Assembly: GCA_041690395.1 (NCBI GenBank)
Contig: JAWLHJ010000004.1
Span: 273,365 to 337,364, forward strand
Direction of reading: 5' to 3'
Length of the DNA stretch: 64,000 nucleotides
Origin: Longimicrobiales bacterium
GTDB lineage: Bacteria > Gemmatimonadota > Gemmatimonadetes > Longimicrobiales > Gaopeijiaceae
Shown here: positions 46,049 to 64,000 of the stretch, piece by piece
Layout of the letters: every line of letters begins with the position of its first letter
Position numbering within the stretch: position 1 is the first letter of the stretch
Notes under the pieces: generated by a model
Told to the model about the DNA's origin: nothing
Database searches by the model: none
The model's input: the letters and a program-made list of their open reading frames with translations, nothing else
Position numbers and translations under genes: made by a program

Positions 46049-46100
46049 GATGGCTCCTCGCCCACGCGGCCATGGTACGGCCGGCCGGGCCTCGTCCTGG

Positions 46101-46916
46101 TCAGTTGCGCGTGTAGATCCACATGTCCAGCGAATCGGAGACCATGTCTCCCCCCGGACCCATGACTCGCTCTCCCGTCCGGATCCGAACCTCGATCTGC
46201 CGTACGTCGGTCGGAGTCGACGTGATGTTGCCGAGGGCGTCACGATAGATGAACTGCAACCCATCGGTCCCGGGATAGCGGAGAGGACCCGCGATCGGCG
46301 TGCCGTCCCGCGTCAGGTAAGGCGTGGTCGGGTACAGCCAGAGCCCCGTCCCATAGGTGAAGTACTGGTAGGCACGAACGGGCGCTCCGACACGAACCGT
46401 GTCGTTGACGAAAAGCCCGCCGGCCGTATCCACTTCGAGATCCATCGCCGGGCGACCGAGACATGTCACGGTATTGTCGACGTCGACGAGACCGACCCGG
46501 AGCCACCTATCGTCGCTTCCCGTAGCCTCACGATTGTCCGCGAATACGAGAACCGTGTCGTCGGCGACCGCGAAATCATCACCCGAATTGTCGAGCACCC
46601 GAATCCGGGGGGGGCTGGCGGTCGGACCCACATCGATTTCGCATGCGATGCCGAACTTGCGCATCAAGCGGACCCGCAGGTTCGACGGACCCATCGAGAG
46701 AATGTCACCGTCCGCCGGACTCAACTCCCTGAGCTCGTTGAACATCACCTCGATAGCCATTCGGCTGGCCTGCTGCCCCTCGATGGCGGCACTCTGCGCG
46801 GTGAAGGTCCTCTGATTGGTGATCAGCACTTGAAGCGCTGCCGAGAGGACGATGACACCGAGGACCGACACGACGATCAGCTCGACGAGTGTGAAGCCGT
46901 CACGATTCCTGGTCAT
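46101..46916 (-). CDS. PilW-like minor pilin (cassette 1)
   Basis: RDG/FTLVELIV class III signal, NELRE, LQFIYRD...VRQIEVRI. Confidence 0.85.
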   Translation of the reverse strand: MTRNRDGFTLVELIVVSVLGVIVLSAALQVLITNQRTFTAQSAAIEGQQASRMAIEVMFNELRELSPADGDILSMGPSNLRVRLMRKFGIACEIDVGPTASPPRIRVLDNSGDDFAVADDTVLVFADNREATGSDDRWLRVGLVDVDNTVTCLGRPAMDLEVDTAGGLFVNDTVRVGAPVRAYQYFTYGTGLWLYPTTPYLTRDGTPIAGPLRYPGTDGLQFIYRDALGNITSTPTDVRQIEVRIRTGERVMGPGGDMVSDSLDMWIYTRN

Positions 46917-46919
46917 CGT

Positions 46920-47321
46920 CTATTGCCTCAGAATGCGGAAGACGAACGTGTCGGCTACGGCTGGCGCGAGGTTGCCCATACCGCCCGGGCTCAGACCCGG
47001 CCCGACGGTGACCACGGTCAGGATCTTCGACTGCGGACCGTCATCCTCGGCGTCCCAATTCACCGCGAAGATGCCAACGGAATCTGAGCCGTCCACCACG
47101 TTGTCGTACGGGAGCGACTGAAGCCGATCGATGATCGTCTGCGAAGCGAACGTTCGCTCCGTGAGCAGGTCGCCGAGCGTGACTGTCCGCACGAGGTAGC
47201 CCGTGGAGCCGGCGAGGCCCAGGAGCCCAATGGTCAGGATGACGATGGCGATGATGATCTCGACCATCGTGAACCCGGCTCGGGCATGCGTCGGCACGGC
47301 CGGCGAAACAGTGTCATTCAC
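46920..47321 (-). CDS. PilV-like minor pilin (cassette 1)
   Basis: RAG/FTMVEIIIAIVILTIGLLGLAG; start codon uncertain (GTG 47321). Confidence 0.82.
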   Translation of the reverse strand: MNDTVSPAVPTHARAGFTMVEIIIAIVILTIGLLGLAGSTGYLVRTVTLGDLLTERTFASQTIIDRLQSLPYDNVVDGSDSVGIFAVNWDAEDDGPQSKILTVVTVGPGLSPGGMGNLAPAVADTFVFRILRQ

Positions 47322-47329
47322 GGAGCGGC

Positions 47330-47794
47330 TCACTGGTTGAGCAGGAGCTGGCCCAAGGGCATGGCCCACAGGTTGGTCACCTCGGCGCCCTGATGGAAGT
47401 GCAGGCGCATCAGGGTGCCGGGCGTGCTGCAACTGAGATCGGCGTACCCGCGCGGGCTGAAACAGATCGTGTATTCGGTCAAGCTGCTCGGCAGTGAGAT
47501 CCTCATGTCCAGATTCTCGTCGCCGAAGCGGATGATCTCCAGGATGTCCCCGTCGTCCTCGATCCACACGGAATCCCCCGTCACGTCCGCATGCAACATG
47601 ACGTTCCGGCCCTTCTCGATGCCATGTACCCGCGCCCGGTAGTGGATCGCGGCGTATGTCGTCTGAGCCCCGCGGACCGCGATGCGGGTCTGTGCGCCAC
47701 TGATCTGATTCAGCGCGATCGTCGTCAGGATGCTCCCGATGACGATAGCGATGATCAGCTCGATCATCGTGAAGCCGGTGCGCGTGCGGTACAT
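47330..47794 (-). CDS. FimT/GspH-like minor pilin (cassette 1)
   Basis: RTG/FTMIELII, RAR..GI, ICFSPRG, MPLG. Confidence 0.82.
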   Translation of the reverse strand: MYRTRTGFTMIELIIAIVIGSILTTIALNQISGAQTRIAVRGAQTTYAAIHYRARVHGIEKGRNVMLHADVTGDSVWIEDDGDILEIIRFGDENLDMRISLPSSLTEYTICFSPRGYADLSCSTPGTLMRLHFHQGAEVTNLWAMPLGQLLLNQ

Positions 47795-47841
47795 GATGCC
47801 GGGGTAGCTCAGTGTTCGGGGGGTGTGCCGACTCTGTATGG

Positions 47842-47857
47842 ACCAAGTTCCGTGCCA
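47842..47857 (-). promoter_or_regulatory. Possible sigma54 promoter of minor-pilin cassette 1
   Basis: TGGCACGGAACTTGGT: perfect -24, variant -12 (TTGG). Confidence 0.5.
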
Positions 47858-48070: not shown

Positions 48071-48098
48071 TTGAAGGGGGGGCGGCATGGCGTATGCT
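48071..48098 (+). promoter_or_regulatory. Possible sigma70 promoter of the spermidine-synthase-like gene
   Basis: TTGAAG-N16-TATGCT. Confidence 0.4.
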
Positions 48099-48187
48099 CT
48101 GCTCTCGATCGACGCTACCACGCCTCACCCACGGCCTCGCCGCCCCCGCGGGCGCGTACCGTCCGAGACTGTCATGGATCGCGCAAA

Positions 48188-51100
48188 GTGAGACAGAGAC
48201 CCGCACTTTACATCGCTTTCGTCGTGTCCGGGATGGCCGGGCTCGTGTACGAAGTCCTGTGGAGCCGATACCTGGCCCTCTTCGTCGGACACGGCGCCTT
48301 CGCCCAGGTGCTGGTCCTCTCCGTCTACCTCGGAGGGATGGCGGTCGGCGCCTTGGCCGTGTCCGACATCTCGCGCAAGCTCGACCGGCCCCTTCTGGGA
48401 TATGCTGCGCTGGAAGTGGCTCTCGCCGCCTTCGGGCTGCTCTTTCACCCGATGTACCAAGCCGTGACGGGGCTCGGGTACGACGTGATCTTCCCCGCCC
48501 TTGCCGATCCGAATCTGGCCGGCGCGGTCCGCTGGGGGCTGGCCGGAATCATCATCCTCCCTCAGGCGATGCTGCTCGGCGCCACCTTCCCGCTCATGGC
48601 CGCGGGCCTCGTGCGTATGGCTCCGGACAGACCGGGCGGCGGCGTCGCCACCGCGTATCTGCTCAACACCCTGGGTGGAGCGGCCGGAGTCCTCGTGGCC
48701 GGATTCCTCCTCATCGGCTGGTTCGGCTTCGCGGGCACCTCGGTGGCCGCCGCGACCCTGAATCTCCTCGCGGCCGGGCTGGTCTGGAGCTCCGTGCGGG
48801 GATTCGCGGGCCCCTCGCTCGCTGCACCGGTCGACCGCGAGAAGGACGGTGCAGCCCCTCCCGAAGCACGTGCGCTCAGCCTCGTGCTCCTGCCGGTGGC
48901 GTTCGGGACGGCGCTCGCGTCGTTCGCGTACGAGATCGGTTGGATCCGCATGCTTTCGCTCCTGCTCGGGAGCGCCACGCATGCCTTTGAGTTGATGCTG
49001 TCGGCGTTCATCCTCGGGCTCGCGATCGGAGCGTGGCTCGTCCGCGGCGCTGCCGACCGTTCGCGGGAGCCCATCGCGGCGCTCGGCTGGGTCCAGGTCG
49101 CCATGGGGCTGGCGGCGCTGATGTCGATCCCGGTGTACGGGTCCTCGTTCGATCTCGTCGCCGCCATGGTCGAGGGTACCAGCGGTCGTCCCGGTGGATA
49201 CGCGCTCTTCAACATCGGGCGCTACACGCTCGCGATGACCGTCATGCTTCCAGCGACCGTCCTCGCGGGCATGACCCTTCCGCTGCTCACGGCGGCCCTG
49301 CTGCGCGCCGGGGCCGGCGAGCGAGCGATCGGCCGGGTGTACGCGGTCAATACCGTGGGCGCGGTTTCCGGCTCGGTCCTGGCCGGGCTGGTCCTGCTCC
49401 CCATCCTCGGCTTGAAGGGCCTGCTCGTGGCGGGCGCCGGGCTCGACACCCTCCTGGGCCTGTGGCTCCTCGCCTGGTCGGCCCGGATGGCCCGTGCCCA
49501 TGGGGCGAGCCCGGCTCCGGGCGGATTCGCCCGTTGGGGGCGAAGGGTCGTCGTTCCGGCGGGCGCGTGCCTGATCGCGTTCACCGGGGTCGGGCTCGGC
49601 GTCGACCTCGACCGGGTGGTCATCACGAGCGGCGTGTTCCGCGACGCGTTGGTCCCGGAGGCGTCGTCCCGGACGATGCTCTACTACCAGGACGGTAGGA
49701 CAGCGACGGTATCGGCGCACGTCGGGGCGGAGGAAGGCGTCACGGTACTGTCGACCAACGGGAAGCCCGACGCTTCGGTCGGACCCCTCTGGCGGATCGA
49801 GGGACGTGACACCATCCCCGAGACACCGATCCCGAGCGGCAGCGACTTCTCGACGCAGATGCTTTCTGGGGTCGTCGGGCTCGGGCACCGACCCGACGGC
49901 GGGTTGGTGGCGAACGTCGGACACGGCTCCGGCATCACGGGCGCGACGCTGCTCACGAGTGAAGACGTCGACCGGCTGGTCACGGTCGAGATCGAGCCGT
50001 TCATGGTCGAAGCCTCACTCGTCTTTCTTCCCCTGAACGAGGCCGTGTTCGCGGATCCGCGCTCCAGCTTCGTGTTCGACGACGCCAAGTCGTTCTTCTC
50101 GTACAGCCGCGAGCGTTTCGACCTGATCGTCACGGAGCCCAGCAACCCATGGGTGAGCGGCACCGCGTCGCTCTTCACGAGGGAGTTCTACGACCAGGTC
50201 GGGGACTTTCTCGCGGACGACGGTGTGCTCGTCCAGTGGATGCAGCTCTACGAGCTGACCGACGAGCTCTTCCTGACCGTGCTCGCCGCGCTGGATACGG
50301 CGTTCGAAGCCTACCGGGTCTACCTGGTGGGCGACGCCGACCTCGCGATCGTGGCTTCCCGGCGCGGGCCCCTTCCCACCCCCGACTGGTCGGTCGCGTC
50401 TTCACCCGCGATGAGGTCATTCACTGCCGGCATTCCCGAGATCAGGCCGGCGCACTTGGAGTCCTTGGCCCTCTTCGACGAATCGACACTCCGTCCGTTG
50501 CTCGACCGTGGGCTCCCGGCGAACTCGGACTTCGATCCGATCCTCGACCTCGGTGCCGAGCGCGCTCGGTTCGATCGGGCCTTCGCCCACGGTGCGTTCA
50601 GCTTCGCGACCAGCCCCCTGGACCTGGCGCGGCTCCTCAGAGAGGAGGCCCGTCCGCCGATTCCCCACACGCCGCCGCCCGCTCGCGGCCCCATCTCGCT
50701 GGTGCGAACCGAGCGCGGAGCCTGGCTGAGGGAGGCCATCGGCGAGGGCGGCGCGTACGCTCCGGACGCCTTCCCGGAGTGGACGGAGGCCCTGATCCAC
50801 TTGCAGACCTTCCTCTTTCTGAGCTCCGGTGACGCACAGCTCGGGTCGTGGGACACCTGGGGCGAGGGCTTCAGCCGGGCCGCGGGCGACCTGCACTGGG
50901 GCACGACCGGGTGGGCCGACACGACCTTCTACCGAGCCGCGCGGAGCTTCCTCGACCGGTCCGATGCCCCTGCCGAGGCGCGGGCCGTCGTCGATCTGCA
51001 CGAGGCGGTGTCGCTCCTCGACTGGGGGAGGGCGGCTGGCGCTGCAGACCTGCTCGTCGATCGCGTCGCCGCCGGAGAGCGTTGGGTGCCTCCGGCTACC

Positions 51101-51253
51101 CTGCTGGACGCAGCCGTGCTCGCCTATCTCCGTGTCGATCGGCCCGAGGCCGCGCGTAACGCGCTCGAGGCGCTGGCGCATGGCACGGGTCGCCCGGCAG
51201 GTCATCTGCGTCACCGTGTGCTCGACGCCTGGATCGCGGACGCGGGTGGATAG
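48188..51253 (+). CDS. Multi-TM (MFS-like) protein fused to a spermidine-synthase-like SAM-fold domain and a C-terminal helical region
   Basis: Two repeats of SG..L.YE..W.R and YxxNTxGG/GA; NGKPDAS, VGHGSGIT, VEIEP, DDAK, DLIVTEPSNPWVSG..SLFTREFY. Confidence 0.85.
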   Translation: MRQRPALYIAFVVSGMAGLVYEVLWSRYLALFVGHGAFAQVLVLSVYLGGMAVGALAVSDISRKLDRPLLGYAALEVALAAFGLLFHPMYQAVTGLGYDVIFPALADPNLAGAVRWGLAGIIILPQAMLLGATFPLMAAGLVRMAPDRPGGGVATAYLLNTLGGAAGVLVAGFLLIGWFGFAGTSVAAATLNLLAAGLVWSSVRGFAGPSLAAPVDREKDGAAPPEARALSLVLLPVAFGTALASFAYEIGWIRMLSLLLGSATHAFELMLSAFILGLAIGAWLVRGAADRSREPIAALGWVQVAMGLAALMSIPVYGSSFDLVAAMVEGTSGRPGGYALFNIGRYTLAMTVMLPATVLAGMTLPLLTAALLRAGAGERAIGRVYAVNTVGAVSGSVLAGLVLLPILGLKGLLVAGAGLDTLLGLWLLAWSARMARAHGASPAPGGFARWGRRVVVPAGACLIAFTGVGLGVDLDRVVITSGVFRDALVPEASSRTMLYYQDGRTATVSAHVGAEEGVTVLSTNGKPDASVGPLWRIEGRDTIPETPIPSGSDFSTQMLSGVVGLGHRPDGGLVANVGHGSGITGATLLTSEDVDRLVTVEIEPFMVEASLVFLPLNEAVFADPRSSFVFDDAKSFFSYSRERFDLIVTEPSNPWVSGTASLFTREFYDQVGDFLADDGVLVQWMQLYELTDELFLTVLAALDTAFEAYRVYLVGDADLAIVASRRGPLPTPDWSVASSPAMRSFTAGIPEIRPAHLESLALFDESTLRPLLDRGLPANSDFDPILDLGAERARFDRAFAHGAFSFATSPLDLARLLREEARPPIPHTPPPARGPISLVRTERGAWLREAIGEGGAYAPDAFPEWTEALIHLQTFLFLSSGDAQLGSWDTWGEGFSRAAGDLHWGTTGWADTTFYRAARSFLDRSDAPAEARAVVDLHEAVSLLDWGRAAGAADLLVDRVAAGERWVPPATLLDAAVLAYLRVDRPEAARNALEALAHGTGRPAGHLRHRVLDAWIADAGG

Positions 51254-51275: not shown

Positions 51276-52343
51276 TCACGGGCTGACCGGTGGAAGTCGC
51301 GGCACCGGCGTCGGTGACGGCATCCACTCGGTCGCACCGGCGCGCAAGGCTCGCGCCGCCCAGCATGCCGAGCCCCGCACGGTCGCGCCGGCGCCGACGA
51401 TCAACCCGCCGTCCGCCACGACCATCCCATGGAGCTCACTGCGGTCCTCGAGCGTGACGACGCCGCTGGCCACCACCATGCCGTAGAGGCGTGCGTCGCC
51501 GGACAGTTGCAGGTCCCCGTCGACCACCAGCATGGCCTGTCCGGATCCACCGGCGACGTGGAGCGTATCCGCGGTACGGCGGACGGCGATGTGCGCCCCA
51601 CACGGACCGGTCGGCCGCTCCGGGTCCCCCCAGTTCCACGGCTCGTCGGTCGAGCACACGCCGGCCCACTCGCTCGGGAACGGTACGCCCGTTCCAGCGA
51701 TCCCGACCGACGTCCCGGCCACCAGATCCTCGAAGCTCAGGAGACCGAGCGCGGCCGCAGACCCATCGGCCCCCGTCGCCACGGCGTCGGGAACGACACC
51801 CTCGAACGCGGGCCCGACCTCCGGATCGCAGGTCGCGGCATCGAGCGGTGCCTCCGCCAGCCCGAACCCGAGCCGGTCGATGCTGCCGTCGATCCGTACC
51901 AGGGCACCCTGGCCCACCGTCACGACCGCGCCCAGGGCCCGTATCCGGCTTACCGGATCCAACCACCAGAGGAGCAGCCCCGAGGTCCCGATGCGCCGGG
52001 AGCCGCCATCCAGCGCCGCCCGCTCGAGCCACCAGCTCTCGGGGCCGACGCGCCTCACACGGAGCGGTTGCCAGGCGGGGTCGGTCGGCTCGACGCCTTC
52101 CGCTTGGCCCCCGACCGCGGCAACGTCCCAGATAGGCAGGCGCATAAGGTCGCTGTCGAGGCCAGCCGCCAGGGCCTCGTCCCTCCGGGCCCGGAGAGCC
52201 GCCTTATCCTCGAGGGCTCCAGCGTACGCGCGGGAGGCGTTCAGCTCTGCACGCGCGACCAGCAGGGTGCCGTGCGCGAGCGCGGTGGCGGTGAGGAGCA
52301 GTAGCACGACCGCAAGCATGGCCGCCCCTCGCCTCCCCCTCAC
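51276..52343 (-). CDS. PilX-like minor pilin (cassette 2)
   Basis: RRG/AAMLAVVLLL signal; NWGDP..P..PCG and GQAMLVVDGDL...LYGMVV shared with cassette-1 PilX; GTGA overlap. Confidence 0.72.
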   Translation of the reverse strand: MRGRRGAAMLAVVLLLLTATALAHGTLLVARAELNASRAYAGALEDKAALRARRDEALAAGLDSDLMRLPIWDVAAVGGQAEGVEPTDPAWQPLRVRRVGPESWWLERAALDGGSRRIGTSGLLLWWLDPVSRIRALGAVVTVGQGALVRIDGSIDRLGFGLAEAPLDAATCDPEVGPAFEGVVPDAVATGADGSAAALGLLSFEDLVAGTSVGIAGTGVPFPSEWAGVCSTDEPWNWGDPERPTGPCGAHIAVRRTADTLHVAGGSGQAMLVVDGDLQLSGDARLYGMVVASGVVTLEDRSELHGMVVADGGLIVGAGATVRGSACWAARALRAGATEWMPSPTPVPRLPPVSP

Positions 52344-53077
52344 GGCGCCCCCCCGCCGAGCGGTACACGCCACCGGCGTAGCGGACCCGGCCCGGTTCCG
52401 GTGATGGCTCCGGGGACCGCCCCGACCCGCCACACGAGCTCGGCACTCAGCCGTCCGTCCGCCAGGCCCCAGCCACTCTCCCGTTCAAACAGCTCGGGCG
52501 TAAGGGGCTGTCGGCCACCGGCACCGCGCCGGTAGCGGAGCGCCCGCCCGGACAGGGAATACGCTCCCCGCTCGAACACTCGTGCCAGCACGCCCCCTGG
52601 CGGAAACGCTCCGCCGAGCTCGAGGGCAAGGCCTCCCTCCAAGAGCGCGCCCCAACAGGTGGACGGACCCTCGGCGACACCCGTCAGGGCAAGCACGGCC
52701 CTGGCCCCGTCGGCGTAGACGACCTCGATCGAGTCCTTGGTCGGATCCGGGCGCCGGTAGCCGCCGTACGATACGACGAGGCGCTCCGGAGCCTCGTGCT
52801 CGCCGCAGACCAGTCCCGTTCCCCGGTACGCGCGCAGCGCCAGCGAGTCGTCAGCCACGGCCCAGTCGACACCGGCGCGGCCAGCGGCCGTCTCGGCCCG
52901 CAGCAACGCCCCGGTGAGGCGCACCGCTGACAGGGCGTCGGCCCGCTCCATGGCCCGCGCGTGAGCGAGGCGGGTCCGACCGACCGCGGCCATGCCCGCC
53001 TGCATGAGAAGGAGCCCGAGGAGGAGGGCCACCAACGTCTCGACCAGCGTGGCGCCGCCTACCTGCCGCCCGGTCAC
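52340..53077 (-). CDS. PilW-like minor pilin (cassette 2)
   Basis: GG/ATLVETLVALLLG, LRAE, RQPL; GTGA overlap. Confidence 0.72.
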   Translation of the reverse strand: MTGRQVGGATLVETLVALLLGLLLMQAGMAAVGRTRLAHARAMERADALSAVRLTGALLRAETAAGRAGVDWAVADDSLALRAYRGTGLVCGEHEAPERLVVSYGGYRRPDPTKDSIEVVYADGARAVLALTGVAEGPSTCWGALLEGGLALELGGAFPPGGVLARVFERGAYSLSGRALRYRRGAGGRQPLTPELFERESGWGLADGRLSAELVWRVGAVPGAITGTGPGPLRRWRVPLGGGAP

Positions 53078-53388
53078 GGGCGCGCCGCCTCGAGCCGGAC
53101 GAGGGTATCGCCGTGCGCGTCGGTGGCGACCACGACCGCCCGGCCTGGATCCAAAGCGGCCTCCCACCGCACGACTCCGCCCGGGAAGGAGTCCACGCCC
53201 GGACCCATGAAGCCGTGCGCTTCCAACGAATCGGCCGCCATGGCCGTCGCCGCGGCGGCCCGGGTCGTCAGCTCGGCCTCAGTCAGCGTGCGGGCGGCGA
53301 GCAACAGGGTGCCCACCACGCCCAGTACGCCGATCTCGAGGAGAACCAGCGCGACGACCACCTCGATCAGCGTGAAGCCCCGGCTCAT
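53074..53388 (-). CDS. PilV-like minor pilin (cassette 2)
   Basis: SRG/FTLIEVVVALVLLEIGVLG. Confidence 0.8.
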   Translation of the reverse strand: MSRGFTLIEVVVALVLLEIGVLGVVGTLLLAARTLTEAELTTRAAAATAMAADSLEAHGFMGPGVDSFPGGVVRWEAALDPGRAVVVATDAHGDTLVRLEAARP

Positions 53389-53807
53389 TCACGCCTCACA
53401 CGTCCGAACGACGAGATGATCAGGCGTGTCCGGGACGATCCGGCCACCAACTCGATCGTCTCGTTCGCGAACACGCCGATGCCGAGCCCGTTGAACGGGA
53501 TCTCGGTGCGGTCGCGTCCGGCTCCCAAGGTCAGCCGGACCCCACCGTCACCGGGCACCGTCGAGCGAAACGTCGTCGAATCGCCCACGGCGATCCGGAT
53601 CTCGCCGTCCGCACTCAGGTGGAGGCTCGCCGCGCCCGCGCGCACGGCCTCGGTCCGCGTCCGGTGCAGCGCCGCCACGATCTCCTCGCGCGCGGTGAGC
53701 ACCTCCATGCGATCACCGAACCGGCTCGCGGCCGGCACGACCGCCGTCGACGCGGTGGCGAGCAGCGCGAGCGTCGCCGTCATCTCCAGGAGTGTGTACC
53801 CGTTCAT
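53385..53807 (-). CDS. FimT/GspH-like minor pilin (cassette 2)
   Basis: NG/YTLLEM, RTRTEAV, IPFNGLG, ISSFGRVR. Confidence 0.78.
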   Translation of the reverse strand: MNGYTLLEMTATLALLATASTAVVPAASRFGDRMEVLTAREEIVAALHRTRTEAVRAGAASLHLSADGEIRIAVGDSTTFRSTVPGDGGVRLTLGAGRDRTEIPFNGLGIGVFANETIELVAGSSRTRLIISSFGRVRRE

Positions 53808-53861: not shown

Positions 53862-55216
<1,355 letters not shown>

Positions 55217-55220
<4 letters not shown>

Positions 55221-56329
55221 GTCGCCTCCGGGCGGGCGTCCGGGCCAGGGGTCTTTGCGGCTGGAAGCCTAATAGTAAAGCGTGCGCCCGCTTCTGGCGC
55301 GTTCGCCGCTTCGATGCGCCCTCCCATCCCCTCGACCAACCGTGCGCAGATCGAGAGTCCGAGCCCGGTCCCGCGGCCGGGCTCCTTGGTGCTGAAGAAC
55401 GGATCGAAGATCTGTTCGAGGTCGTCCTCGGGAATGCCCGGACCCGTGTCGGTAACGTCGATGATCGCCACCCGCTCGGCCAGGAACACGGGGTCGACGC
55501 CGCGTCCACCGTCGTCCCGCGAGATCCGGCGCCGATGCATGTAGTTCACGCCCGGCGGGTCGTCCTCGCGACGTGTCGGGAGATCCGCGACTTCGCCACG
55601 CGCGGCATAAGCCCTGACCCGGATGATCCTCCGAGGAGACGATTCCATCGCGTCGAGCGCGTTCAGGAGGAGGTTGACGAGTACCTGCTCCATCCGGTGC
55701 GCGTTCATGAGCACGTCCGGGGTGTCCGGTGCGACGTACCAGTGGGTCTCGACGTCGGAGAGCTTTCCCTGATGGTCGAGCAGCCGCCGGACCCGGGCGA
55801 CAACCGCACCGATCGCCTCGGGGGCCAGCCCCTCCTCTCTGGGTCGCGCATAGTTGAGGAGGCTCTTCACGATCCGGTCGATGCGCTCGGCCTCTTCCCG
55901 AATCGAGTCGAGGATCTCCGGCTCCGCCTCGCCCTTCCGGGCTCGAGCCCTGGCCACGTCGACGTAGCCCATGATGGCCCCGAGCGGGTTGCCCACCTCG
56001 TGGGCGATGCCGGCGGCGAGGGTCCCGACCGACGCGAGCCGCGCGGCACGCACGATCTCGGCACGGGCTTCGACCAGCTCCCGGTTGGTCCGGTCCAGTG
56101 AGGCGACGTTGCGCTCGAGGAGCTCGCGGTCCGGCGCCATCCAGCGACGGGCCAGCCAGGTCAGGCCGAGGGCACCGCAGACCACGCCCACGACAGCGAG
56201 CAGGATGGCCGGTATCGAAGCGCCCGGCCGGGCGAGGTGGAATCCGAGCGCGAGGAGGAGGAGAGAGATCGCGGCGGAGGCCGCGACGAACGCCCGGGAT
56301 GCCGGCGGACCGGCGGGGGTGGTGATCAG
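55217..56329 (-). CDS. PilS-like sensor histidine kinase with two TM helices
   Basis: AHEVGNPL H-box, NLLLNA, DTGPGI, FDPFFSTK, GTGLGL; frame open upstream of GTG 56191 encoding hydrophobic helices, CTG 56329 proposed as start. Confidence 0.85.
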
Positions 56330-56712
56330 TAGTTGCAGGTGATCATGCTCTCCACGGTCGCCGGGCTGACCTGCGTGGCGTTTCCGTGATAGAGCGCGCA
56401 GGTGACGGACGGGAGGCCTGTGTGGACCGCGGACGCGGACCAGCCCTGCCCCGTCGCTTCACCGATGGTGACCGTGACGCCGTCCGAGCGGGTGAACCCC
56501 AGCGCATCCTGATCGGTCGAGTAGGTGAAGTTCGCGTTGTGATAGACTTCCTGCAGGCTGGCCAGGTTCCGGAGATCGGCGGTCATCGCGGATACGAAAG
56601 CCCGCTCACGTGTCGCCGAGAACTTGGGAATCGCGATCGAGGCCAGGATCCCGATGATGACGACGACGATCAGGAGCTCGATCAGGGTGAAGCCTTCGCG
56701 CTTGGTGGACAT
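56326..56712 (-). CDS. Type IVa pilin, second paralog
   Basis: REG/FTLIELLIVVVIIGILASIAIPKF; C-terminal Cys pair. Confidence 0.95.
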   Translation of the reverse strand: MSTKREGFTLIELLIVVVIIGILASIAIPKFSATRERAFVSAMTADLRNLASLQEVYHNANFTYSTDQDALGFTRSDGVTVTIGEATGQGWSASAVHTGLPSVTCALYHGNATQVSPATVESMITCNY

Positions 56713-56864: not shown

Positions 56865-57266
56865 TTACGGCGTGCAAGCGAGCTCGCCGGACTGCGCCGG
56901 CGACCCGAGCAGGGTCGGCGCAGAGGCAAAGTCGCCGTAGAAGATGCCGCAGCCCTCGGTGGTCGTAAGCGCGTCGTGGGTCGCCTGAGCCTGCCAACCG
57001 GTATTCGACGGCGCGGCGGGGAAGGTGACGTTCACGCCCTCGGACGAAACGAAGCCGAGGTTGGTGGTGTTGCTGGTGTAGGTATAGTGGTCCGAGTAGT
57101 AGATCTCCTGCTGGCTAGCCAGGTTCTTCAGGTCGGACTTCATCGCGGCGAAGTAAGCCCGCTCACGCGTGGCGGAGAACTTCGGAATGGCGATGGCCGC
57201 CAGGATGCCGATGATCACGACCACGATCAACAGCTCGATGAGGGTGAAACCCTTGTTGTCCCGCAT
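56865..57266 (-). CDS. pilA: Type IVa major pilin
   Basis: NKG/FTLIELLIVVVIIGILAAIAIPKF, Cys pair; GGAG RBS; directly behind a sigma54 promoter. Confidence 0.93.
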   Translation of the reverse strand: MRDNKGFTLIELLIVVVIIGILAAIAIPKFSATRERAYFAAMKSDLKNLASQQEIYYSDHYTYTSNTTNLGFVSSEGVNVTFPAAPSNTGWQAQATHDALTTTEGCGIFYGDFASAPTLLGSPAQSGELACTP

Positions 57267-57316
57267 TGGAATGCTCCAGGTGTGAAGTGAAACCGGGTTG
57301 TGCGACCAAGATATGG

Positions 57317-57331
57317 GCAAGCTCTGTTCCA
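57317..57331 (-). promoter_or_regulatory. Sigma54 promoter of pilA
   Basis: TGGAACAGAGCTTGC (GG-N10-GC), about 50 bp upstream of the pilin ATG. Confidence 0.75.
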
Positions 57332-57474
57332 CCTGTGCCACGCACGACATAAGCTACTGCAATAAAACGTGTTAAGGCGCTCTCGACAGCCCAGCCCCAT
57401 GACGTCTGCCAGCGCTCTATCTGGGATTCTGCAAGGCGCCATGCCTTGTGCGATACTGTGCAGTACCGAGACGC

Positions 57475-59403
57475 TCAGTCGCCGTCAGGCGGCTTCGGCC
57501 GGCTCGGCTCGGCTCCAAAGTCGTAGACGAGGAGCGAATCGAGGCTTGTTCGTCCTGATGCGGTCGAGACGGTCGCCCGGGCCGAATCGAGTGCAGCCTG
57601 CATCGCCGCATCGTCACCGGCCCGCCGCGCGACCCAGGCGTCGTAGATCCAACGCTGCCAGAACTGAGCGACGGCGCTACGCTCGTCCGCCCGAGCACGC
57701 ACCTCGGCGGCCTCTTCCCAAGCCCCCCGGGCAGCGAGTGCCCACGCGAGCACGTGTAGCCGTGCGGCGTCTGTGCCCGATCCCTGAACGGCGAGTGCCA
57801 CCCGTGCGTAGCGCTCGGCCTCGCGAGGGTTCCCGAGCTCCGCGTGGATCCCTGCCCGAATCCCGTATGCAAGCGGATGATCGGGCCGTTCGCGGGTGGC
57901 GATCGCGAGAAGTCGGTCCGCGCTCTCCGGTCGTTCGAGATTCACCAGGGTCTGTGCCACGTGGACCAGCAGGCCGTAGTGTGTTCCTACGAGGTTGATC
58001 GCCGCCCGATAGGCGAACAGCCCCTGGCTGATCTGCCCCTGTCGGATGAAGTGGTCACCCAGGGACCATTGGGCCCTTCCCGAATACGGATGGTCCCGCA
58101 TCAACACCGCGAAGACCGTGTTATGGGTCCGCCAGTCGGGATTCCGCGTCCAGGTGCGGACGGACCCGGCGAGGAGCACCACCAGAAGCACGGCGGGAGC
58201 CATCCTGGGCCGATCTCGCGCCATCCGAACGAAGAGCCACCCCACGGCGGCCGCGAGCCCGGCCGATGGGAGGTAGAGCGTTCGCTCCGCCAAGATCACG
58301 CCAGTGAGAAAGAGAGTGTTCGAGATCGGCGAGATAGCGATCAGGAACCAGACGATCCCGAACGCCGCCACTCTGGCGGAGCGTGACCCAGGTCCGAGAT
58401 CGGCGCGCCGCCAGGCGAACCATGTGCCAAGGAGGACCACGAGTCCGAGCACCACGCCCGTCACGTTGGTCGCGTTCCAACCGAGGGAGACCGGGATGAC
58501 GTTGGGCGTGTAGTCGGACGAGAGGTCCAGCGGGAAGACCCAAAGCCGCACATAGTGAGTCCAGACCTCCCCGAGTGTCCAAATCTTGGGCACTTCGTAG
58601 AGAAGATCGAAACCGGCCGGCCCGATCGGCGCGCCAGCCCCCTGAAGGACCGTGGCCCGCGCCGTCAGCATGCTCACCGCAACGACGAGCATCACGAAAT
58701 AGACGCGCCAGCGCCGGGCGACGTAGGCCTGAAGCTCTCGGAATCCGATGCGCTCCTGGGCCGCGTCGACCAAGAACACGAGTCCGGCGAGCGTCACCGC
58801 CCCCTCCTTCGCGCCGAAGCCGACCGCGTACAGAACCCCGACGGCCAGCGCGCGTCGCCATCCTGTGCGAGGTCCGCTCCCGAGGTGGATGGCGAGGGCA
58901 GCGAGCACAGCGAGGGCCGCCGTGATCTCGGCCTGACCGACCACGTTGGCTACCGCCTCCGTGTGCACCGGGTGAACGGCGAAGACCAACCCCGCCACGA
59001 ACGCGATGCCGAGCGTCATGAGGCGAGCGAGAACCAGGACCAGGAGGCCCGAGACGGCCGCGTGAAGTGCGACGTTGACGAGATGGAACGGAAGTGGCGA
59101 TCCACCGCCGATCAAATACTGCAGTCCGAACAGTCCTGTCGTTACCGGCCGCCAGAGCGCGAGCTCTGGGCCCGCGGGGCCCGGCCAGTAGGGGGCCAGC
59201 AAGGCACCTGGAAGCCGGTCCCAGCTCTGGATGGTCGGGTTCCTCTCGATGATCGAAACGTCATCGTATGCGAAGCCGTTGAGCAGCGAGTTCGCAAAGA
59301 CGACTACCGCGACTCCGACGACAATCAGAACAGCTCGCCGAAGGGTTAGGGCGCGCAGCCAACCGGCAAACGCCCGCTCCGTCATCCGCATCGAGTCCCT
59401 CAC
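57475..59403 (-). CDS. TMTC/DUF1736-like GT-C glycosyltransferase with C-terminal TPR-like helices
   Basis: NGFAYDD, WRPVTT, FHLVNVALHA, FAVHPVHTEAVANVVGQAE, KE, PLDLSSDY, LAERTLYLPS, RNPDW then TPR-like repeats. Confidence 0.8.
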   Translation of the reverse strand: MRDSMRMTERAFAGWLRALTLRRAVLIVVGVAVVVFANSLLNGFAYDDVSIIERNPTIQSWDRLPGALLAPYWPGPAGPELALWRPVTTGLFGLQYLIGGGSPLPFHLVNVALHAAVSGLLVLVLARLMTLGIAFVAGLVFAVHPVHTEAVANVVGQAEITAALAVLAALAIHLGSGPRTGWRRALAVGVLYAVGFGAKEGAVTLAGLVFLVDAAQERIGFRELQAYVARRWRVYFVMLVVAVSMLTARATVLQGAGAPIGPAGFDLLYEVPKIWTLGEVWTHYVRLWVFPLDLSSDYTPNVIPVSLGWNATNVTGVVLGLVVLLGTWFAWRRADLGPGSRSARVAAFGIVWFLIAISPISNTLFLTGVILAERTLYLPSAGLAAAVGWLFVRMARDRPRMAPAVLLVVLLAGSVRTWTRNPDWRTHNTVFAVLMRDHPYSGRAQWSLGDHFIRQGQISQGLFAYRAAINLVGTHYGLLVHVAQTLVNLERPESADRLLAIATRERPDHPLAYGIRAGIHAELGNPREAERYARVALAVQGSGTDAARLHVLAWALAARGAWEEAAEVRARADERSAVAQFWQRWIYDAWVARRAGDDAAMQAALDSARATVSTASGRTSLDSLLVYDFGAEPSRPKPPDGD

Positions 59404-61538
59404 GGGGCCACCAAGCCAGCCAAAGCAGCGTCTGAGCCGATATCCGGACTCCAGATCAATCGCTCCCCCTCGAGGTACGGCATCGCGCGGGGAGCGCCGT
59501 CGGGCGTCGTCGAGGCCAGAAGGTACGGCGTCCGCTCTGGGAAGGCCTCCATTACCGCCCGATTGCGGCGGGGGCCAAGATCACGCACATACATCGCCCG
59601 GTCGCCGGTCTCCAAGCCCGGCAACTCCCCCTTGAGTAGCAGGGGAGCCAACGAGACCATCCCGAACCGGTCCGCCTGGAGATGCCGCGCGCATTCGGGG
59701 GTCAGTCGCTCCCCTGGGACCATCCGGACGTTGAGTGCCATGCTGGGAACCGGTCTCTGGCGAACGCCGGGCGCCGTGCCGGGCTCCTGACGGAGATCGA
59801 TCACCGGCAGTTCAGCCACCCCATAATCACTCCGGGCGGCTGCGGCTCGCGCCTCCGCGTACTCGTGCACCCGGCAAGTCGAGTTCCGGCGCAGCACCGA
59901 GACGATGGTGTCCGATCGCATACCGCCCTCTCCCTGGAGGACTGCACTCATACGCTCGTACCAGCCGGCGTGGACGAAAACCAGGGCCCCGTCCGCCCCC
60001 ATCTCCTCGATCGTGGGCGGCGTGATTCGGCCCAAGGTCTCCTCGGTCCACCTATGACTCTCCACCAACCGGGGAACGCCCCACGTCACGGCGACGACCA
60101 GCGCCAAAGCGGCCGACCAGACAGCGGTGTCCGGCCCTCGCCACGAAACGCTCGCGAACCGCGAGGCCGTTTCCTGCTGAGGGGGGCGGCGTGTGAGGTG
60201 AACGGTCCCGAGGACTCCCAGAGCAAGCCAGGCCGGCGCGCCTTCGTAGATCATACGGGTCGTGTGGAACCAGTATCCGGCGTTAGCGATCAGGGGCAAC
60301 GTGGCCCACATGACAAGGAAACCGGCTCCGCGGGGCAATGTCCGCGCGGAGAGGAGGTACAGCCCGACGACCGCGGTAAGGGGAACCGGCGTCTCGAGGA
60401 AGCGGATGCCGATCTCGAGGAAGTCGGTGGAGGTGAAGCCCAACGCCTCGGCAGGGCCATAGGGGGCGCCCCATGGGTCCATGTGGAAGCCGAGCCCGTG
60501 TCGATCACCGTATGCCGCTGAATAGCCCAACGTCAACGGATCGCCGAACAGCCGCTGGTTGTACCATCCGAGGAAGAGGGCGAAGGGCATCCCCCCCATG
60601 GCCGTGGCGAAGCATCGGCGCGCCAGACCATGAACACCGAACTCGGGCCGAGCCGGGATCCAGATGCCGAGCGTGAAGAGGGTGCCCAGAGCCACTCCTT
60701 GCAGAGGGCGGGACATGACGGCGAGTCCGATCGCCACGCCGGCGAGCACGGCCCAGGAGGCGGATCCGTCGCGGGCCCTCAGGGAACTATAGAGCGCCAG
60801 AGTCAGAAAGAGGCCCGCCGTGAGATGGCTGAGCGCTCCGCCCCCCAGAAGGACGACGAAGGGGCTGATCGCAAACAGAAGCGCAGCCAATCGAGCCTCG
60901 GTATCTCGCTCGGGGAGGAGCCGCGGCAACGACAGCACCAGCAGGAACGCCGTAGCGGCCACGCAGAACGGGCCCAGCAGGCCCGGCACGCCCAGGCGGA
61001 CGAGCAGGGCCATCACCACAAGATGAGATGGTGGGTATTGGGAGACCCAGCCCTCCTCCACCATGAGCGTGTTGGGGAACAACCAGGCAGCCGGCGTGGC
61101 TGGAAGCGGTCCCGCCAGCCGGCCTGCGGCCAGATACCGGGCATGCACCATCGACGCGATTTCGTCGACGTTGGTGTAGTGCCCCTCGTATAGGATCGTC
61201 CACGCCAGGAACGCGAGGCCACCCGCCAAACCGGCCGCCAGGAGACCCAGGGCCGGCCGTGACGGTGCCCGGGCGGCCTTCGCAAGGCTTTCCACCCACC
61301 CACGGATCCGATCCGCGGGCAGGAACCACGCGAGAACGGCACCGGCGAGGACGATCGTGATCGTGCCCCAGAGCGCCAGATCGAGGTTGAGCTCGCCGAA
61401 TAGAAAGCTGGCCTCCCGGAACGAGCTTCCCCCTGCCGAGCCTCCCAGGATCCGATAGATCGGAAGGAACGCCAGGGCCAGGAACACAGCTCCCAACCCC
61501 CGTCGCACCACCGTCGTCGCGCGGGCCAGCCCGCTCAT
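59400..61538 (-). CDS. PMT/ArnT-like GT-C glycosyltransferase (multi-TM)
   Basis: TNVDE acidic motif in first extracytoplasmic loop, SQYPP, ISPF...LSH, SRP, YNQRLFGDP; ATGA overlap. Confidence 0.72.
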   Translation of the reverse strand: MSGLARATTVVRRGLGAVFLALAFLPIYRILGGSAGGSSFREASFLFGELNLDLALWGTITIVLAGAVLAWFLPADRIRGWVESLAKAARAPSRPALGLLAAGLAGGLAFLAWTILYEGHYTNVDEIASMVHARYLAAGRLAGPLPATPAAWLFPNTLMVEEGWVSQYPPSHLVVMALLVRLGVPGLLGPFCVAATAFLLVLSLPRLLPERDTEARLAALLFAISPFVVLLGGGALSHLTAGLFLTLALYSSLRARDGSASWAVLAGVAIGLAVMSRPLQGVALGTLFTLGIWIPARPEFGVHGLARRCFATAMGGMPFALFLGWYNQRLFGDPLTLGYSAAYGDRHGLGFHMDPWGAPYGPAEALGFTSTDFLEIGIRFLETPVPLTAVVGLYLLSARTLPRGAGFLVMWATLPLIANAGYWFHTTRMIYEGAPAWLALGVLGTVHLTRRPPQQETASRFASVSWRGPDTAVWSAALALVVAVTWGVPRLVESHRWTEETLGRITPPTIEEMGADGALVFVHAGWYERMSAVLQGEGGMRSDTIVSVLRRNSTCRVHEYAEARAAAARSDYGVAELPVIDLRQEPGTAPGVRQRPVPSMALNVRMVPGERLTPECARHLQADRFGMVSLAPLLLKGELPGLETGDRAMYVRDLGPRRNRAVMEAFPERTPYLLASTTPDGAPRAMPYLEGERLIWSPDIGSDAALAGLVAP

Positions 61539-63667
61539 ACGGTGGCGCCTCGCGACTCCATCGTCCCACTCCGGCGCGCGAGCCAGAACACGACCAGATA
61601 GGCTGCCACCGCTCCGAGGCTCAGCATCCGCAGGCCCACGGCCATCGACGTGAACTCCAGAAGGCCGCCGGCCACGGCGCCCAGGAGGTTCCACCCGAAG
61701 GCCACCCCGACAGACTCCCGCGTCCGAAAGCGGAGGGCGAAGCATGCCGCCGCGAAGAAGATGGGCGTGCCCACCAGAAGCACGGAAAGAGCCAAGCGGA
61801 GCGGGACCGGGTGGCCTACGAGAGCGCCCGTCGGTACGACGAACGTCACCAGGAGCGACGCCACGAGGCCCACGGCGGCGGTCCGGAAGCCCATCGGCTT
61901 GAGCTCCATCAAAACGGTCCCCACCAGAATCATGGCAAGGATGGAGCCGAACACCACCGCGCTGGTGACCCATGTCGCGCCCCACACCAGGCTCATGGCC
62001 GTGATGAACTTGGTCTCGATGACGAGGAACGCGACGCCGAAGAGGAACATCTCCCAGTCGGCGCCTCCACTGCGCCCGAAGGCACGACGCATGTCCGGTG
62101 ACGCGAAGAGCACGGCCAGGACCGAGAGGGCCATGAAGACCGCCATGAGGGACAGGTAGAAACCACTCACCCCGGGCCCCGGAAGATAGAGGTAGGGCCA
62201 GTCGTCGGTGGGCATGCGCCCCACACCGACGGCACGTGCATCCTCCCCGGACACTCGGGTGAGGATCGGCCCGGCGTCCGAAACGTCTTCGAACGCCGGC
62301 CCCGTCATGTAGACGTAGTTGAACATCATCCAGTCGTCCGCCGCGACGAGAGGAGGCTCCCCGAAAGCAGACTCCAGAACAGCGGTGAGGTGCCGGTGGA
62401 TGTGTTCTTCCCCACCCACCATGAAGTACATGACGAGGCCCCCATCGGGGGCGAGGCGGCTCCGAGCCGCGTCTATTGCCTCCCTGGTGTACACGAAGTT
62501 GTCCAGCCGTACGTTCGAGAGCGCGGACAGTCGTGTCATGGAATCCAGCGTCCCGAACACCACCAGGTCGTACAACTCATCCGTGTCGTTCAAGTGTGAC
62601 CGGGCGTCCGTGTTGAGCACCGTCACCCGCGGAGAGCTGTATGGGTCGTCGGGATGGAGCTCGCGTCCGATACGTTGGATGATCGGGTCGATCTCGACCG
62701 CGTGAATCTCCGCCGCTCCCTCGTCGAGTAGGGTTGCAACGTCGTTGCCCGTCCCGGCACCCAGTACGAGAACTTTCCCGAGAGGTCGGTCCAGGAGTCG
62801 GTACGGGAGGTGGTATCCGTCACGTGTTTTCTGAAGCGGGTCGTTCCGCGGTCGCCCCAGTGAGTCCGCAGCCGCCACACCGAAGGCGAGCTGATGAAAC
62901 GATCCGTTCGTGTATACCCCGATGCCCTCCCCATCCCCATGCCATTGGCGCACGGAGAGCGAATAGTACGGACTGTAGATCTGGCCGCGCTCCGACCCGC
63001 TGACCAGAACCAGCAGCAAGACCATGAAGCCGGCGTACGCCAGCCCTGTTCGTCGTCCCCGTACGAAGAGGACGGCCGCGACCGCACCGAACAGAGCGAA
63101 CCAAACGGCAGGGAAGGTCCTTGTGAAGGAGGCTACGGCGAAGCCGATCACGCCGAGGAGTGAACCAACCAGATCGATGGAGTAGCCCCACAGTGCGCTG
63201 GACTGAGCGCGAAAGACGTCGAGACGTTGCGCGATCAGCTGTCCCAGTGGCACGAAAGAGACGGCGCTCAGGACGAAGAGCACGACGAGCGGCAGGCGCA
63301 CTCCGTCCACCACAGGGGCTCCTGGCCCGAGGTCGAAGTAAAGAAGCCACAGATGCTCACCCACCCCATTGTCGGTGAAGGCGATCCCGCTCATCAGCAC
63401 AGCGGCCGACACGACCGCGATGAGAGCCGGCGGCCATACCCACAGGAGAGAGCGACCGTGGGAGCGCAGCGCCCCGACGCCCAGGCCCAGGAACGCGCTG
63501 ATGAGGATCAAGTTCGGGAAGTATGCGACTACCCGAACCTGTACCGGGAGCCATCTGATGAGGGCCAATTCCTGGAACAGGACGACGAACGATGCAGCGA
63601 GAAGCTGGAGGCCCGCGAGACGAAGGGACACTCCCCCGCTCGGCCCCGTCTGGGTCTCCTGGCTCAC
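61535..63667 (-). CDS. Membrane protein with central spermidine-synthase-like SAM-dependent transferase domain
   Basis: LFQELALIRW, YSIDLVGS, YSPYY, VLVLGAGTGND, AVEIDP, DARSHL, TDDWPYLY, FGWNLLGAVAGG; GTG start overlaps GT2 stop. Confidence 0.8.
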   Translation of the reverse strand: MSQETQTGPSGGVSLRLAGLQLLAASFVVLFQELALIRWLPVQVRVVAYFPNLILISAFLGLGVGALRSHGRSLLWVWPPALIAVVSAAVLMSGIAFTDNGVGEHLWLLYFDLGPGAPVVDGVRLPLVVLFVLSAVSFVPLGQLIAQRLDVFRAQSSALWGYSIDLVGSLLGVIGFAVASFTRTFPAVWFALFGAVAAVLFVRGRRTGLAYAGFMVLLLVLVSGSERGQIYSPYYSLSVRQWHGDGEGIGVYTNGSFHQLAFGVAAADSLGRPRNDPLQKTRDGYHLPYRLLDRPLGKVLVLGAGTGNDVATLLDEGAAEIHAVEIDPIIQRIGRELHPDDPYSSPRVTVLNTDARSHLNDTDELYDLVVFGTLDSMTRLSALSNVRLDNFVYTREAIDAARSRLAPDGGLVMYFMVGGEEHIHRHLTAVLESAFGEPPLVAADDWMMFNYVYMTGPAFEDVSDAGPILTRVSGEDARAVGVGRMPTDDWPYLYLPGPGVSGFYLSLMAVFMALSVLAVLFASPDMRRAFGRSGGADWEMFLFGVAFLVIETKFITAMSLVWGATWVTSAVVFGSILAMILVGTVLMELKPMGFRTAAVGLVASLLVTFVVPTGALVGHPVPLRLALSVLLVGTPIFFAAACFALRFRTRESVGVAFGWNLLGAVAGGLLEFTSMAVGLRMLSLGAVAAYLVVFWLARRSGTMESRGATV

Positions 63668-64000
63668 GCCGGATGTCCTGTCTCGGCACTGGACGATCGT
63701 CCATCCGGCCGCGCCGGCCCCCGCCCCTCCCACGGATCCACCTCGGGTACCGTCCACCGCGGCACCCGCGGCGGGAACACGTTGTACTTGAAGATCGCCC
63801 AGAGCGCCGACACCCCGTCCTTCCAGCCGATCTTCTTGCCCTCGGCGTAGGAGCGTCCGTGGTAGCTGATCGGGAGCTCGTAGATGCGGGCTCCGGCCTG
63901 GGCCAGGCGTGCGGTGAGCTCGGGCTCGATACCGAACCGGTTCGCGGACAGGGGGAGGCTCTGGAGGAGCTCCCGCCTGACCATTTTGTAGCACGTCTCC
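63664..64000 (-). CDS. GT2 glycosyltransferase, Dol-P-Man/polyprenol-P-sugar synthase-like (C-terminal part; truncated by window edge)
   Basis: ETCYKMVRRE...RFGIEPELTARL...IYELPISYHGRSYAEGKKIGWKDG. Confidence 0.85.
   Translation of the reverse strand, partial: ETCYKMVRRELLQSLPLSANRFGIEPELTARLAQAGARIYELPISYHGRSYAEGKKIGWKDGVSALWAIFKYNVFPPRVPRWTVPEVDPWEGRGPARPDGRSSSAETGHPA

Follow-up and report, generated by a model that had tools for sequence, protein, structure and literature searches.

A TMTC- and TfpW-like GT-C protein encoded beside the type IV pilins of Gemmatimonadota is a candidate pilin O-glycosyltransferase

A 64,000-nucleotide (nt) stretch of a Longimicrobiales bacterium (Gemmatimonadota; Gaopeijiaceae; assembly GCA_041690395.1, contig JAWLHJ010000004.1, positions 273,365–337,364 of the forward strand), here called the window, contains a run of minus-strand genes that leads directly into the genes of the major type IV pilins. 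The member nearest the pilins (57475–59403; 636–642 amino acids (aa)) encodes a membrane protein of the glycosyltransferase C (GT-C) type with a C-terminal tetratricopeptide repeat (TPR) domain, which we call the TMTC-like protein. In minus-strand order the locus comprises pilS-like and pilR-like genes, a glycosyltransferase family 2 (GT2) gene of the polyprenol-phosphate-sugar synthase type, a gene (MFS-SAM; 61535–63667; 710 aa) for a protein of the major facilitator superfamily (MFS) fold with 14 transmembrane (TM) helices and an inserted spermidine-synthase-fold S-adenosylmethionine (SAM) domain, an accessory GT-C glycosyltransferase-like gene (59400–61538; 712 aa), the TMTC-like gene, pilA1, pilA2, a kinase/sigma-54 regulator pair and minor pilins. 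Only the 3′ part of the GT2 gene (63664–64000) lies within the window. Extension of the contig, which the initial annotation had advised, completed the gene at window-equivalent position 64512 (282 aa; no TM segment; G000:C4:337031-337876, where G000 is this genome) and revealed the pilR-like and pilS-like genes directly upstream, beyond the window edge. The four co-directional genes with 4-nt overlaps described in that annotation were all borne out (GTGA at 63667–63664, ATGA at 61538–61535 and GTGA at 59403–59400), and the distance of about 200 bp to pilA is 208 bp, measured from the stop codon of the TMTC-like gene to the first codon of pilA1. For the third overlap to hold, the GTG at 59403 must be the start codon; in-frame ATGs at 59391 and 59385 come after a GAGGGA. 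The G+C content at third codon positions is 0.79–0.80 in the three inner genes of the block, versus 0.84–0.92 in eight neighbours.

The two pilins are the candidate acceptors. PilA1 (56865–57266, minus strand) is a major type IV pilin with N_methyl and PilA-like matches, and PilA2 (56326–56712, minus strand) is a second major-type pilin with an N_methyl match and 56% identity to PilA1. Ser and Thr together make up 25 of 127 residues of mature PilA1 (20%) and 25 of 121 of mature PilA2, compared with 10.8% for the whole set of proteins predicted in the family loci. A sigma-54-type (−24/−12) promoter-like site of pilA1, TGGAACAGAGCTTGC, lies at 57331–57317 on the minus strand. Counting this one, 31 of 40 loci have its pattern, TGG-N8-YKGC, no more than 130 nt from pilA, versus a shuffled mean of 1.4; an earlier, stricter pattern, which this one replaced, had matched 4 of the 40.

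A structure model of the TMTC-like protein was built with 60 family sequences (predicted local distance difference test score (pLDDT) 93.4). Residues ∼10–430 of the model match AglB (Z 20.4; root-mean-square deviation (rmsd) 4.5 over 327 aligned residues), STT3 (Z 18.2), ArnT (Z 17.9) and Pmt1/2 (Z 17.4) by VIA-align, and beyond residue ∼430 the model matches TPR structures, which supports the GT-C fold plus TPRs first proposed for this gene. The GT-C match came through VIA-align; Foldseek with the whole model returned TPR proteins only. PDB sequence searches with the protein and with the family alignment (A1) had only TPR proteins among the matches listed and none to the TM domain, and a PDB search with a further alignment (A2) found nothing. 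Among the NCBIfam matches listed there was no model covering the TM domain, and two queries for plasmid homologues of the queried proteins returned none. Residues D41-D42, R79-P80, K193-E194, D291 and E367-R368 are invariant in all 60 family sequences, and D41-D42 aligns with the DD of the first periplasmic loop of TfpW. The protein also has T198 (of KExxxT) and Y371 (of ERxxY), with DY in place of the DW of TMTC motif M5.

TfpW is a proven pilin O-glycosyltransferase that transfers D-arabinofuranose (Araf) in Pseudomonas aeruginosa group IV/P. paraeruginosa (AAM52060.1); it is described as a protein of 646 aa with 11 TM helices and TPRs, carries DDX and YX6PFX7P motifs, and is encoded beside pilA (10.1101/2020.04.19.049825). 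The route to it was a TM-only profile (A6): of 400 genomes from the class to which a Gammaproteobacteria record belongs, 129 matched, among them the unpublished G346, on which nothing else here depends. One Gammaproteobacterial match carries the strict YX6PFX7P motif, and a search with this protein led to a 646-aa protein of the P. aeruginosa group (P0342) and to proteins of P. indica and A. beijerinckii. P0342 falls in the same 90% cluster as AAM52060.1 ‘TfpW’, and the other two carry accessions given in the TfpW preprint (10.1101/2020.04.19.049825). In HHalign, A1 matches TfpW (P0342) at 99.0% (E 8e-18, 448 columns) and the TfpW clade at 100% (E 3e-48, 530 columns); a TM-only profile made without TfpW scores TfpW at 167 bits, and pairwise BLAST of the TMTC-like protein against TfpW gives only 26% identity over 246 aa. 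The proline motif here reads YX6PLX7P. Its strict YX6PFX7P form occurs in 1 of the 60 family sequences, and the relaxed YX6P(F/L)X7P in 33 of the 60 versus 35 of 48 in the TfpW clade. By sequence comparison the TMTC-like protein is therefore a full-length TfpW homologue, and because it also keeps most TMTC motifs, ‘TfpW-like’ and ‘TMTC-type’ denote, at the sequence level, one superfamily. The contrast originally drawn between TfpW and a TMTC-type enzyme accordingly finds no support, TfpW itself being a homologue that shares this layout and these motifs. A quick tree, drawn at its midpoint, compared 125 TM domains: 67 rows of A6 plus subsets of A1, A7 and A8, with no eukaryotic TMTC included. 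In it, the TfpW rows (SH-aLRT 100), the Gemmatimonadota rows (97) and a second Gammaproteobacterial group form three separate branches, whose mutual relations the tree does not settle.

Eukaryotic TMTC1–4, which are protein O-mannosyltransferases, belong to CAZy family GT105. We judged likeness to them against a published motif table (PMC7801869). Most motifs (DD, KE, ER, the D of M5 and RP) are kept, in line with the TMTC likeness noted initially; from M2, M3 and M6 the protein retains only the RP, the acid and the second P, the HKSY, R and first P being gone. Pfam gave no DUF1736 match for the protein itself, and 8 of 84 homologues match this domain at E≤0.05 (best 1e-8); an Atlas feature match of the protein to a eukaryotic DUF1736 cluster scores 0.93. 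On these sequence features we describe the protein as TMTC-like, but do not class it as a TMTC.

Linkage of the TMTC-like gene to pilins was counted in several sets of loci. The linkage sets described here are non-random samples, and kin among them are not independent. In the host family we took the best match of 40 of 86 genomes, picked across genera; a pilin lies within 1.5 kb of the TMTC-like gene in all 40 loci, GT2 is present in 38 and the MFS-SAM gene in none, and 15 have a second GT-C gene, which lies upstream of pilS in the opposite orientation. For the other Gemmatimonadota families, 83 of 151 genomes surveyed in the phylum matched, and 40 loci were taken from 39 of them. Here a pilin is found within 1.5 kb in 27 loci and within 5 kb in 30, GT2 in 23, the same GT-C family in nine, another GT-C-like family in 15, and MFS-SAM again in none. 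In seven of these 40 loci the TMTC-like gene is divergent from pilA, so adjacency survives inversion. By chance, a pilin within 1.5 kb would be expected over 0.9% of this genome, which has a single TMTC-like copy, abutting pilA. The proposed linkage of a four-gene block to pilA thus stands for the core, far above chance, and not for the whole block, MFS-SAM being present in 0/40 and 0/40. Nine loci (L039, L040, L041, L045, L062, L072, L077, L081 and L112) carry three TMTC-like paralogues in tandem around GT2 and pilA. The 60 aligned family sequences show no variation in the catalytic motifs, and such paralogues may divide the labour stepwise or by site. Among pilA loci lacking a TMTC-like gene (L270–L289), one genus has pilA moved, with GT2 not found in five of its six genomes.

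A further 77 loci were drawn mostly from other phyla; eight of them have a pilin within 1.5 kb, and 15 have one anywhere in the locus. The pilin-linked records include Acidobacteriota, Nitrospirota, Methylomirabilota and Syntrophobacterales. In Gammaproteobacteria a pilin lies within 1.5 kb in 5 of 29 top-scoring loci, in 17 of 20 mid-scoring loci chosen because their contigs were long (four of the genomes also occur in the top-scoring set), and in 24 of 30 loci from 38 lower-scoring genomes. Many Gammaproteobacterial loci read pilS-pilR-pilA-TMTC-GT2, and three of four GT2s tested there best match AglJ/DPM-type models. The cultured Sulfuricaulis limicola (SCL_0906 region, L322) has pilS-pilR-pilA followed by two TMTC-like genes, annotated as hypothetical, and GT2. 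Runs of six and seven TMTC-like genes without a pilin occur in a Proteobacteria record (L193) and a Methanosarcinales record (L268), respectively.

The best PDB match of GT2 is the dolichyl-phosphate-mannose (Dol-P-Man) synthase 5mlz (E 6e-23), followed by ArnC and sll0501; its NCBIfam matches are AglJ/ArnC/PpgS-like, every one below cut-off. Its closest solved relatives are thus polyprenol-phosphate-sugar synthases, as expected of the Dol-P-Man synthase (DPM)-like enzyme proposed initially. The accessory GT-C assignment is likewise supported, by a Pfam PMT_2 match (26.8 bits versus a cut-off of 26.1) and a conserved acidic motif: D125 is conserved in 20 of 20 sequences, and DE at 125–126 lies in the first outer loop. 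Its C-terminal soluble domain contains two invariant Cys. In 25 of the 41 genomes where both are listed, a full-length member of this family is found no more than 15 kb from a TMTC-like match, a count that uses 51 of 77 GT-C rows (partial matches and most second copies dropped) and an incomplete TMTC list. The gene is a variable accessory that encodes a predicted GT-C. A paralogue elsewhere in this genome (G000:C3:590260-592344; 46% identity), away from any pilin, is closer to the window copy than is the GT-C upstream of pilS in a congener.

The MFS-SAM gene had been described as a membrane SAM-transferase. The SAM fold and the membrane location stand; what was missed is the whole MFS fold and the predicted placement of the SAM domain on the outer face. 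In the model (pLDDT 90.7), a complete MFS fold spans residues 13–704, with a SpeE-fold domain inserted after TM7. The MFS part matches NorA (Z 23.8, 316 residues, rmsd 3.8; many MFS rows tie), and the SAM domain matches SpeE 1uir (Z 20.4). Across 105 sequences, Lys+Arg counts alternate as for 14 TM helices (1.2–3.3 in inside loops, 0–1.0 in short outside loops), with 2.1 over 24 residues in the SAM-domain flanks themselves and helix limits set by hand from the model. This topology predicts that the SAM domain lies on the outer (periplasmic) face. In aminopropyltransferases the first Asp of DxxD has a catalytic role; G372, which aligns to that Asp of SpeE, is glycine in 105 of 105 sequences. 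The acid of GxG(D/E)G, a criterion for aminopropyltransferases (PMC10349129), is replaced by T in 95 and by S in 10 of the 105 (T306 here). Spermidine synthesis was rejected because both aminopropyltransferase acids are missing. From the model, the protein is probably a methyltransferase that faces outward and is supplied by its own transporter part, and four acidic residues that are almost invariant within the TM helices (E33, D165, E551 and E671) hint at a cationic transport substrate.

The protein family of MFS-SAM comprises at least 1789 clusters in several phyla. Strong orthologues occur in 4 of 40 relatives, in one of which (G022) the gene and GT2 lie on different strands, ∼6.5 kb apart, and none of 80 related loci has an orthologue in the slot between GT2 and the GT-Cs. 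Among 80 metagenome loci of its own family, many on short contigs, a hidden Markov model (HMM) search found no pilin, and BLAST found a truncated pilA-like gene in one. Thirteen of the 80 have GT-C, GT2, GtrA or TMTC neighbours (a hand tally, with 112 of 188 neighbours scanned), and the majority of neighbours have unrelated housekeeping roles. MFS-SAM is a recent, lineage-specific local insert whose target need not be a pilin glycan, and the four-gene block does not hold as a unit. A second MFS/SpeE-fold fusion of ∼1000 aa lies at 48071–51253 on the plus strand, convergent to minor-pilin genes; it has 13 hydrophobic segments ahead of its SAM domain, and GHGSG and LIVTEP where the aminopropyltransferase acids would be. 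As a fixed partner of the system this fusion was rejected, being within 15 kb of a listed TMTC match in 6 of 21 genomes.

We consider it likely that 57475–59403 encodes a pilin O-glycosyltransferase that belongs to the TfpW/TMTC superfamily, acts in the periplasm and uses a polyprenol-phosphate sugar made by GT2. From the observed gene layout, fold and motif matches, TfpW homology and linkage counts, we infer the catalytic steps, sugar and acceptor as follows. GT2 would load a hexose-type sugar onto polyprenol phosphate in the cytoplasm, and a flippase would turn the product outward. The TMTC-like enzyme would then bind PilA held in the membrane, its own TPR domain being the probable contact, and move the sugar to a pilin Ser or Thr through its DD/KE/D/ER site. 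The second GT-C may be an optional extender or may serve another acceptor.

Several observations weigh against this assignment. TMTC-like matches occur in 86 of 151 host-family genomes, versus 131 for pilA and 137 for GT2. The Gemmatimonadota proteins fall outside the TfpW clade in the tree. The promoter-like site of pilA means that co-transcription with the upstream block is not implied. Pilin Ser+Thr content after residue 30 is 0.24 ± 0.03 with a TMTC-like gene (n = 40) versus 0.20 ± 0.04 without (n = 18 of 20 loci), and of three within-genus contrasts two point the same way and the third is reversed. Of 20 pilA loci without a TMTC-like gene, 14 show its clean loss, with GT2 left directly before pilA, which implies that GT2 is not dedicated to the TMTC-like enzyme and serves other acceptors too. 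This genome, 98% complete, has no match to the GtrA flippase (PF04138) or to the DprE1-like ALO domain (PF04030), both of them proxies rather than searches for DprE1/E2. With the DPM-like GT2 and neither GtrA nor an ALO domain found, Araf is, from sequence, probably not the donor sugar. Finally, 62 of the 77 loci from other lineages contain no pilin, so the superfamily has other clients. This last count, the many genomes with 2–7 copies, some distant from pilins, and the non-pilin clients of eukaryotic TMTCs (PMC7801869) would fit a general periplasmic protein O-glycosylation in which the TPR domain picks the clients and pilin is at most one of them. We regard that as unlikely here: the single copy abuts pilA, the adjacency persists through inversions and across phyla, and TfpW, the one characterised bacterial homologue found, acts on pilin (10.1101/2020.04.19.049825).

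Alternatively, the genes may modify lipids or surface polysaccharide and lie near pilA merely through a conserved pilS-pilR-GT2-pilA neighbourhood. The TMTC-less loci with GT2 beside pilA point that way, as does the presence of unrelated sodA, dinB and LysM genes that are also syntenic in the host family, and the fold matches include the lipid A modifier ArnT. However, the same trio occurs in a different order in Gammaproteobacteria, pilin adjacency recurs in Acidobacteriota, Nitrospirota, Methylomirabilota and Syntrophobacterales records, and a protein acceptor is indicated by the TPR domain and by the homology to TfpW; mere positional persistence is hence a very improbable account. Pilin glycosylation by the TMTC-like enzyme could also be extended, in that MFS-SAM might export SAM and, once both GT-Cs have acted, carry out a periplasmic methylation of the pilin glycan. 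The position of the inserted gene (GT2 on one side, the GT-Cs on the other, with 4-nt overlaps), a SAM domain predicted to lie where the glycan is built, the 13 family loci with glycosylation-type neighbours, small SAM methyltransferases or a related MFS/SpdSyn fusion in several other pilin-glycosyltransferase loci, and a fungal 7-TM SpeE-fold methyltransferase (PMC10349129) lend it some plausibility. The empty slot in all 80 related loci, the lack of HMM-detected pilins in the 80 loci of its own family and the mostly housekeeping neighbours there make this addition doubtful. A bolder synthesis, in which TfpW and the human TMTCs are the ends of one ancient pilin-glycosylating GT-C/TPR family across many phyla and the pilin glycan here is also methylated extracytoplasmically by a SAM-exporting MFS enzyme, strikes us as improbable as a whole.

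After pilA2 comes a second pair of genes, for a sensor kinase and a sigma-54 response regulator (53862–56191, minus strand), placing the pilins between two such pairs; this pair is kept in most loci of the host family. Two minor-pilin-like sets (fimT/pilV/pilW/pilX-like; 44888–47846 and 51276–53807, minus strand) stand in succession ahead of pilM-Q.

The pairing of pilA with a GT-C/TPR enzyme is already known through TfpW. A literature search without most subscription papers found no description of the TMTC kinship or of the Gemmatimonadota spread of pilA-linked GT-C/TPR enzymes. If our assignment is correct, TfpW-type pilin glycosylation would be no Pseudomonas rarity but widespread, with different lipid-linked sugars; in P. 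aeruginosa, TfpW-type modification blocks pilus-specific phages (10.1101/150227). These proteins would also offer small bacterial TMTC homologues with an obvious candidate substrate for structural and mechanistic work, S. limicola being a cultured carrier. An MFS-embedded, outward-facing SAM domain, if real, would put methyl-transfer chemistry in the periplasm.

Set beside known systems, the locus shares with TfpW a similar protein length, a TM domain followed by a periplasmic TPR domain, alignable DD, RP, HP..E, KE and ER motifs, and adjacency to pilA; it differs in that the gene lies upstream rather than downstream of pilA, that its partner is a DPM-like GT2 with GtrA and a DprE1-like domain not found, and that accessory GT-C genes are variable. 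Like TMTC1–4 (PF08409), the protein has a GT-C domain and then TPRs and keeps M1 DD, M4 KExxxT, M7 ERxxY, the M5 D and the M2 RP (PMC7801869), and its VFAVHPVHT recalls the LFAVHPIHT stretch of TMTC3 (PMC7801869). Unlike them, it has LWRP, QAE and AISP where M2 SHKSYRP, M3 RxD and M6 PxxP would be complete. Eukaryotic TMTCs act on non-pilin proteins; the parts of that article we draw on mention prokaryotic homologues and never a pilin (PMC7801869). For the MFS-SAM protein, the nearest parallels are NHMT of the fungus A. nidulans (AN4663), a methyltransferase of secreted proteins with 7 TM helices and a SpeE fold (PMC10349129), and the fused MFS/spermidine synthase model NF037959, which in NCBIfam gave no match for 61535–63667. 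All have 7 TM helices and then a SpeE-fold domain without the GxG(D/E)G acid, and the likeness to NHMT is by description only; here a second 7-TM block completes the MFS fold. Finally, the synthase-like GT2 and the GT-Cs in one gene run resemble three-component extracytoplasmic glycosylation by a polyprenol-phosphate-sugar synthase, a flippase and a GT-C (PMC11127046), from which this locus differs in that its flippase gene was not identified and its acceptor is likely a protein.

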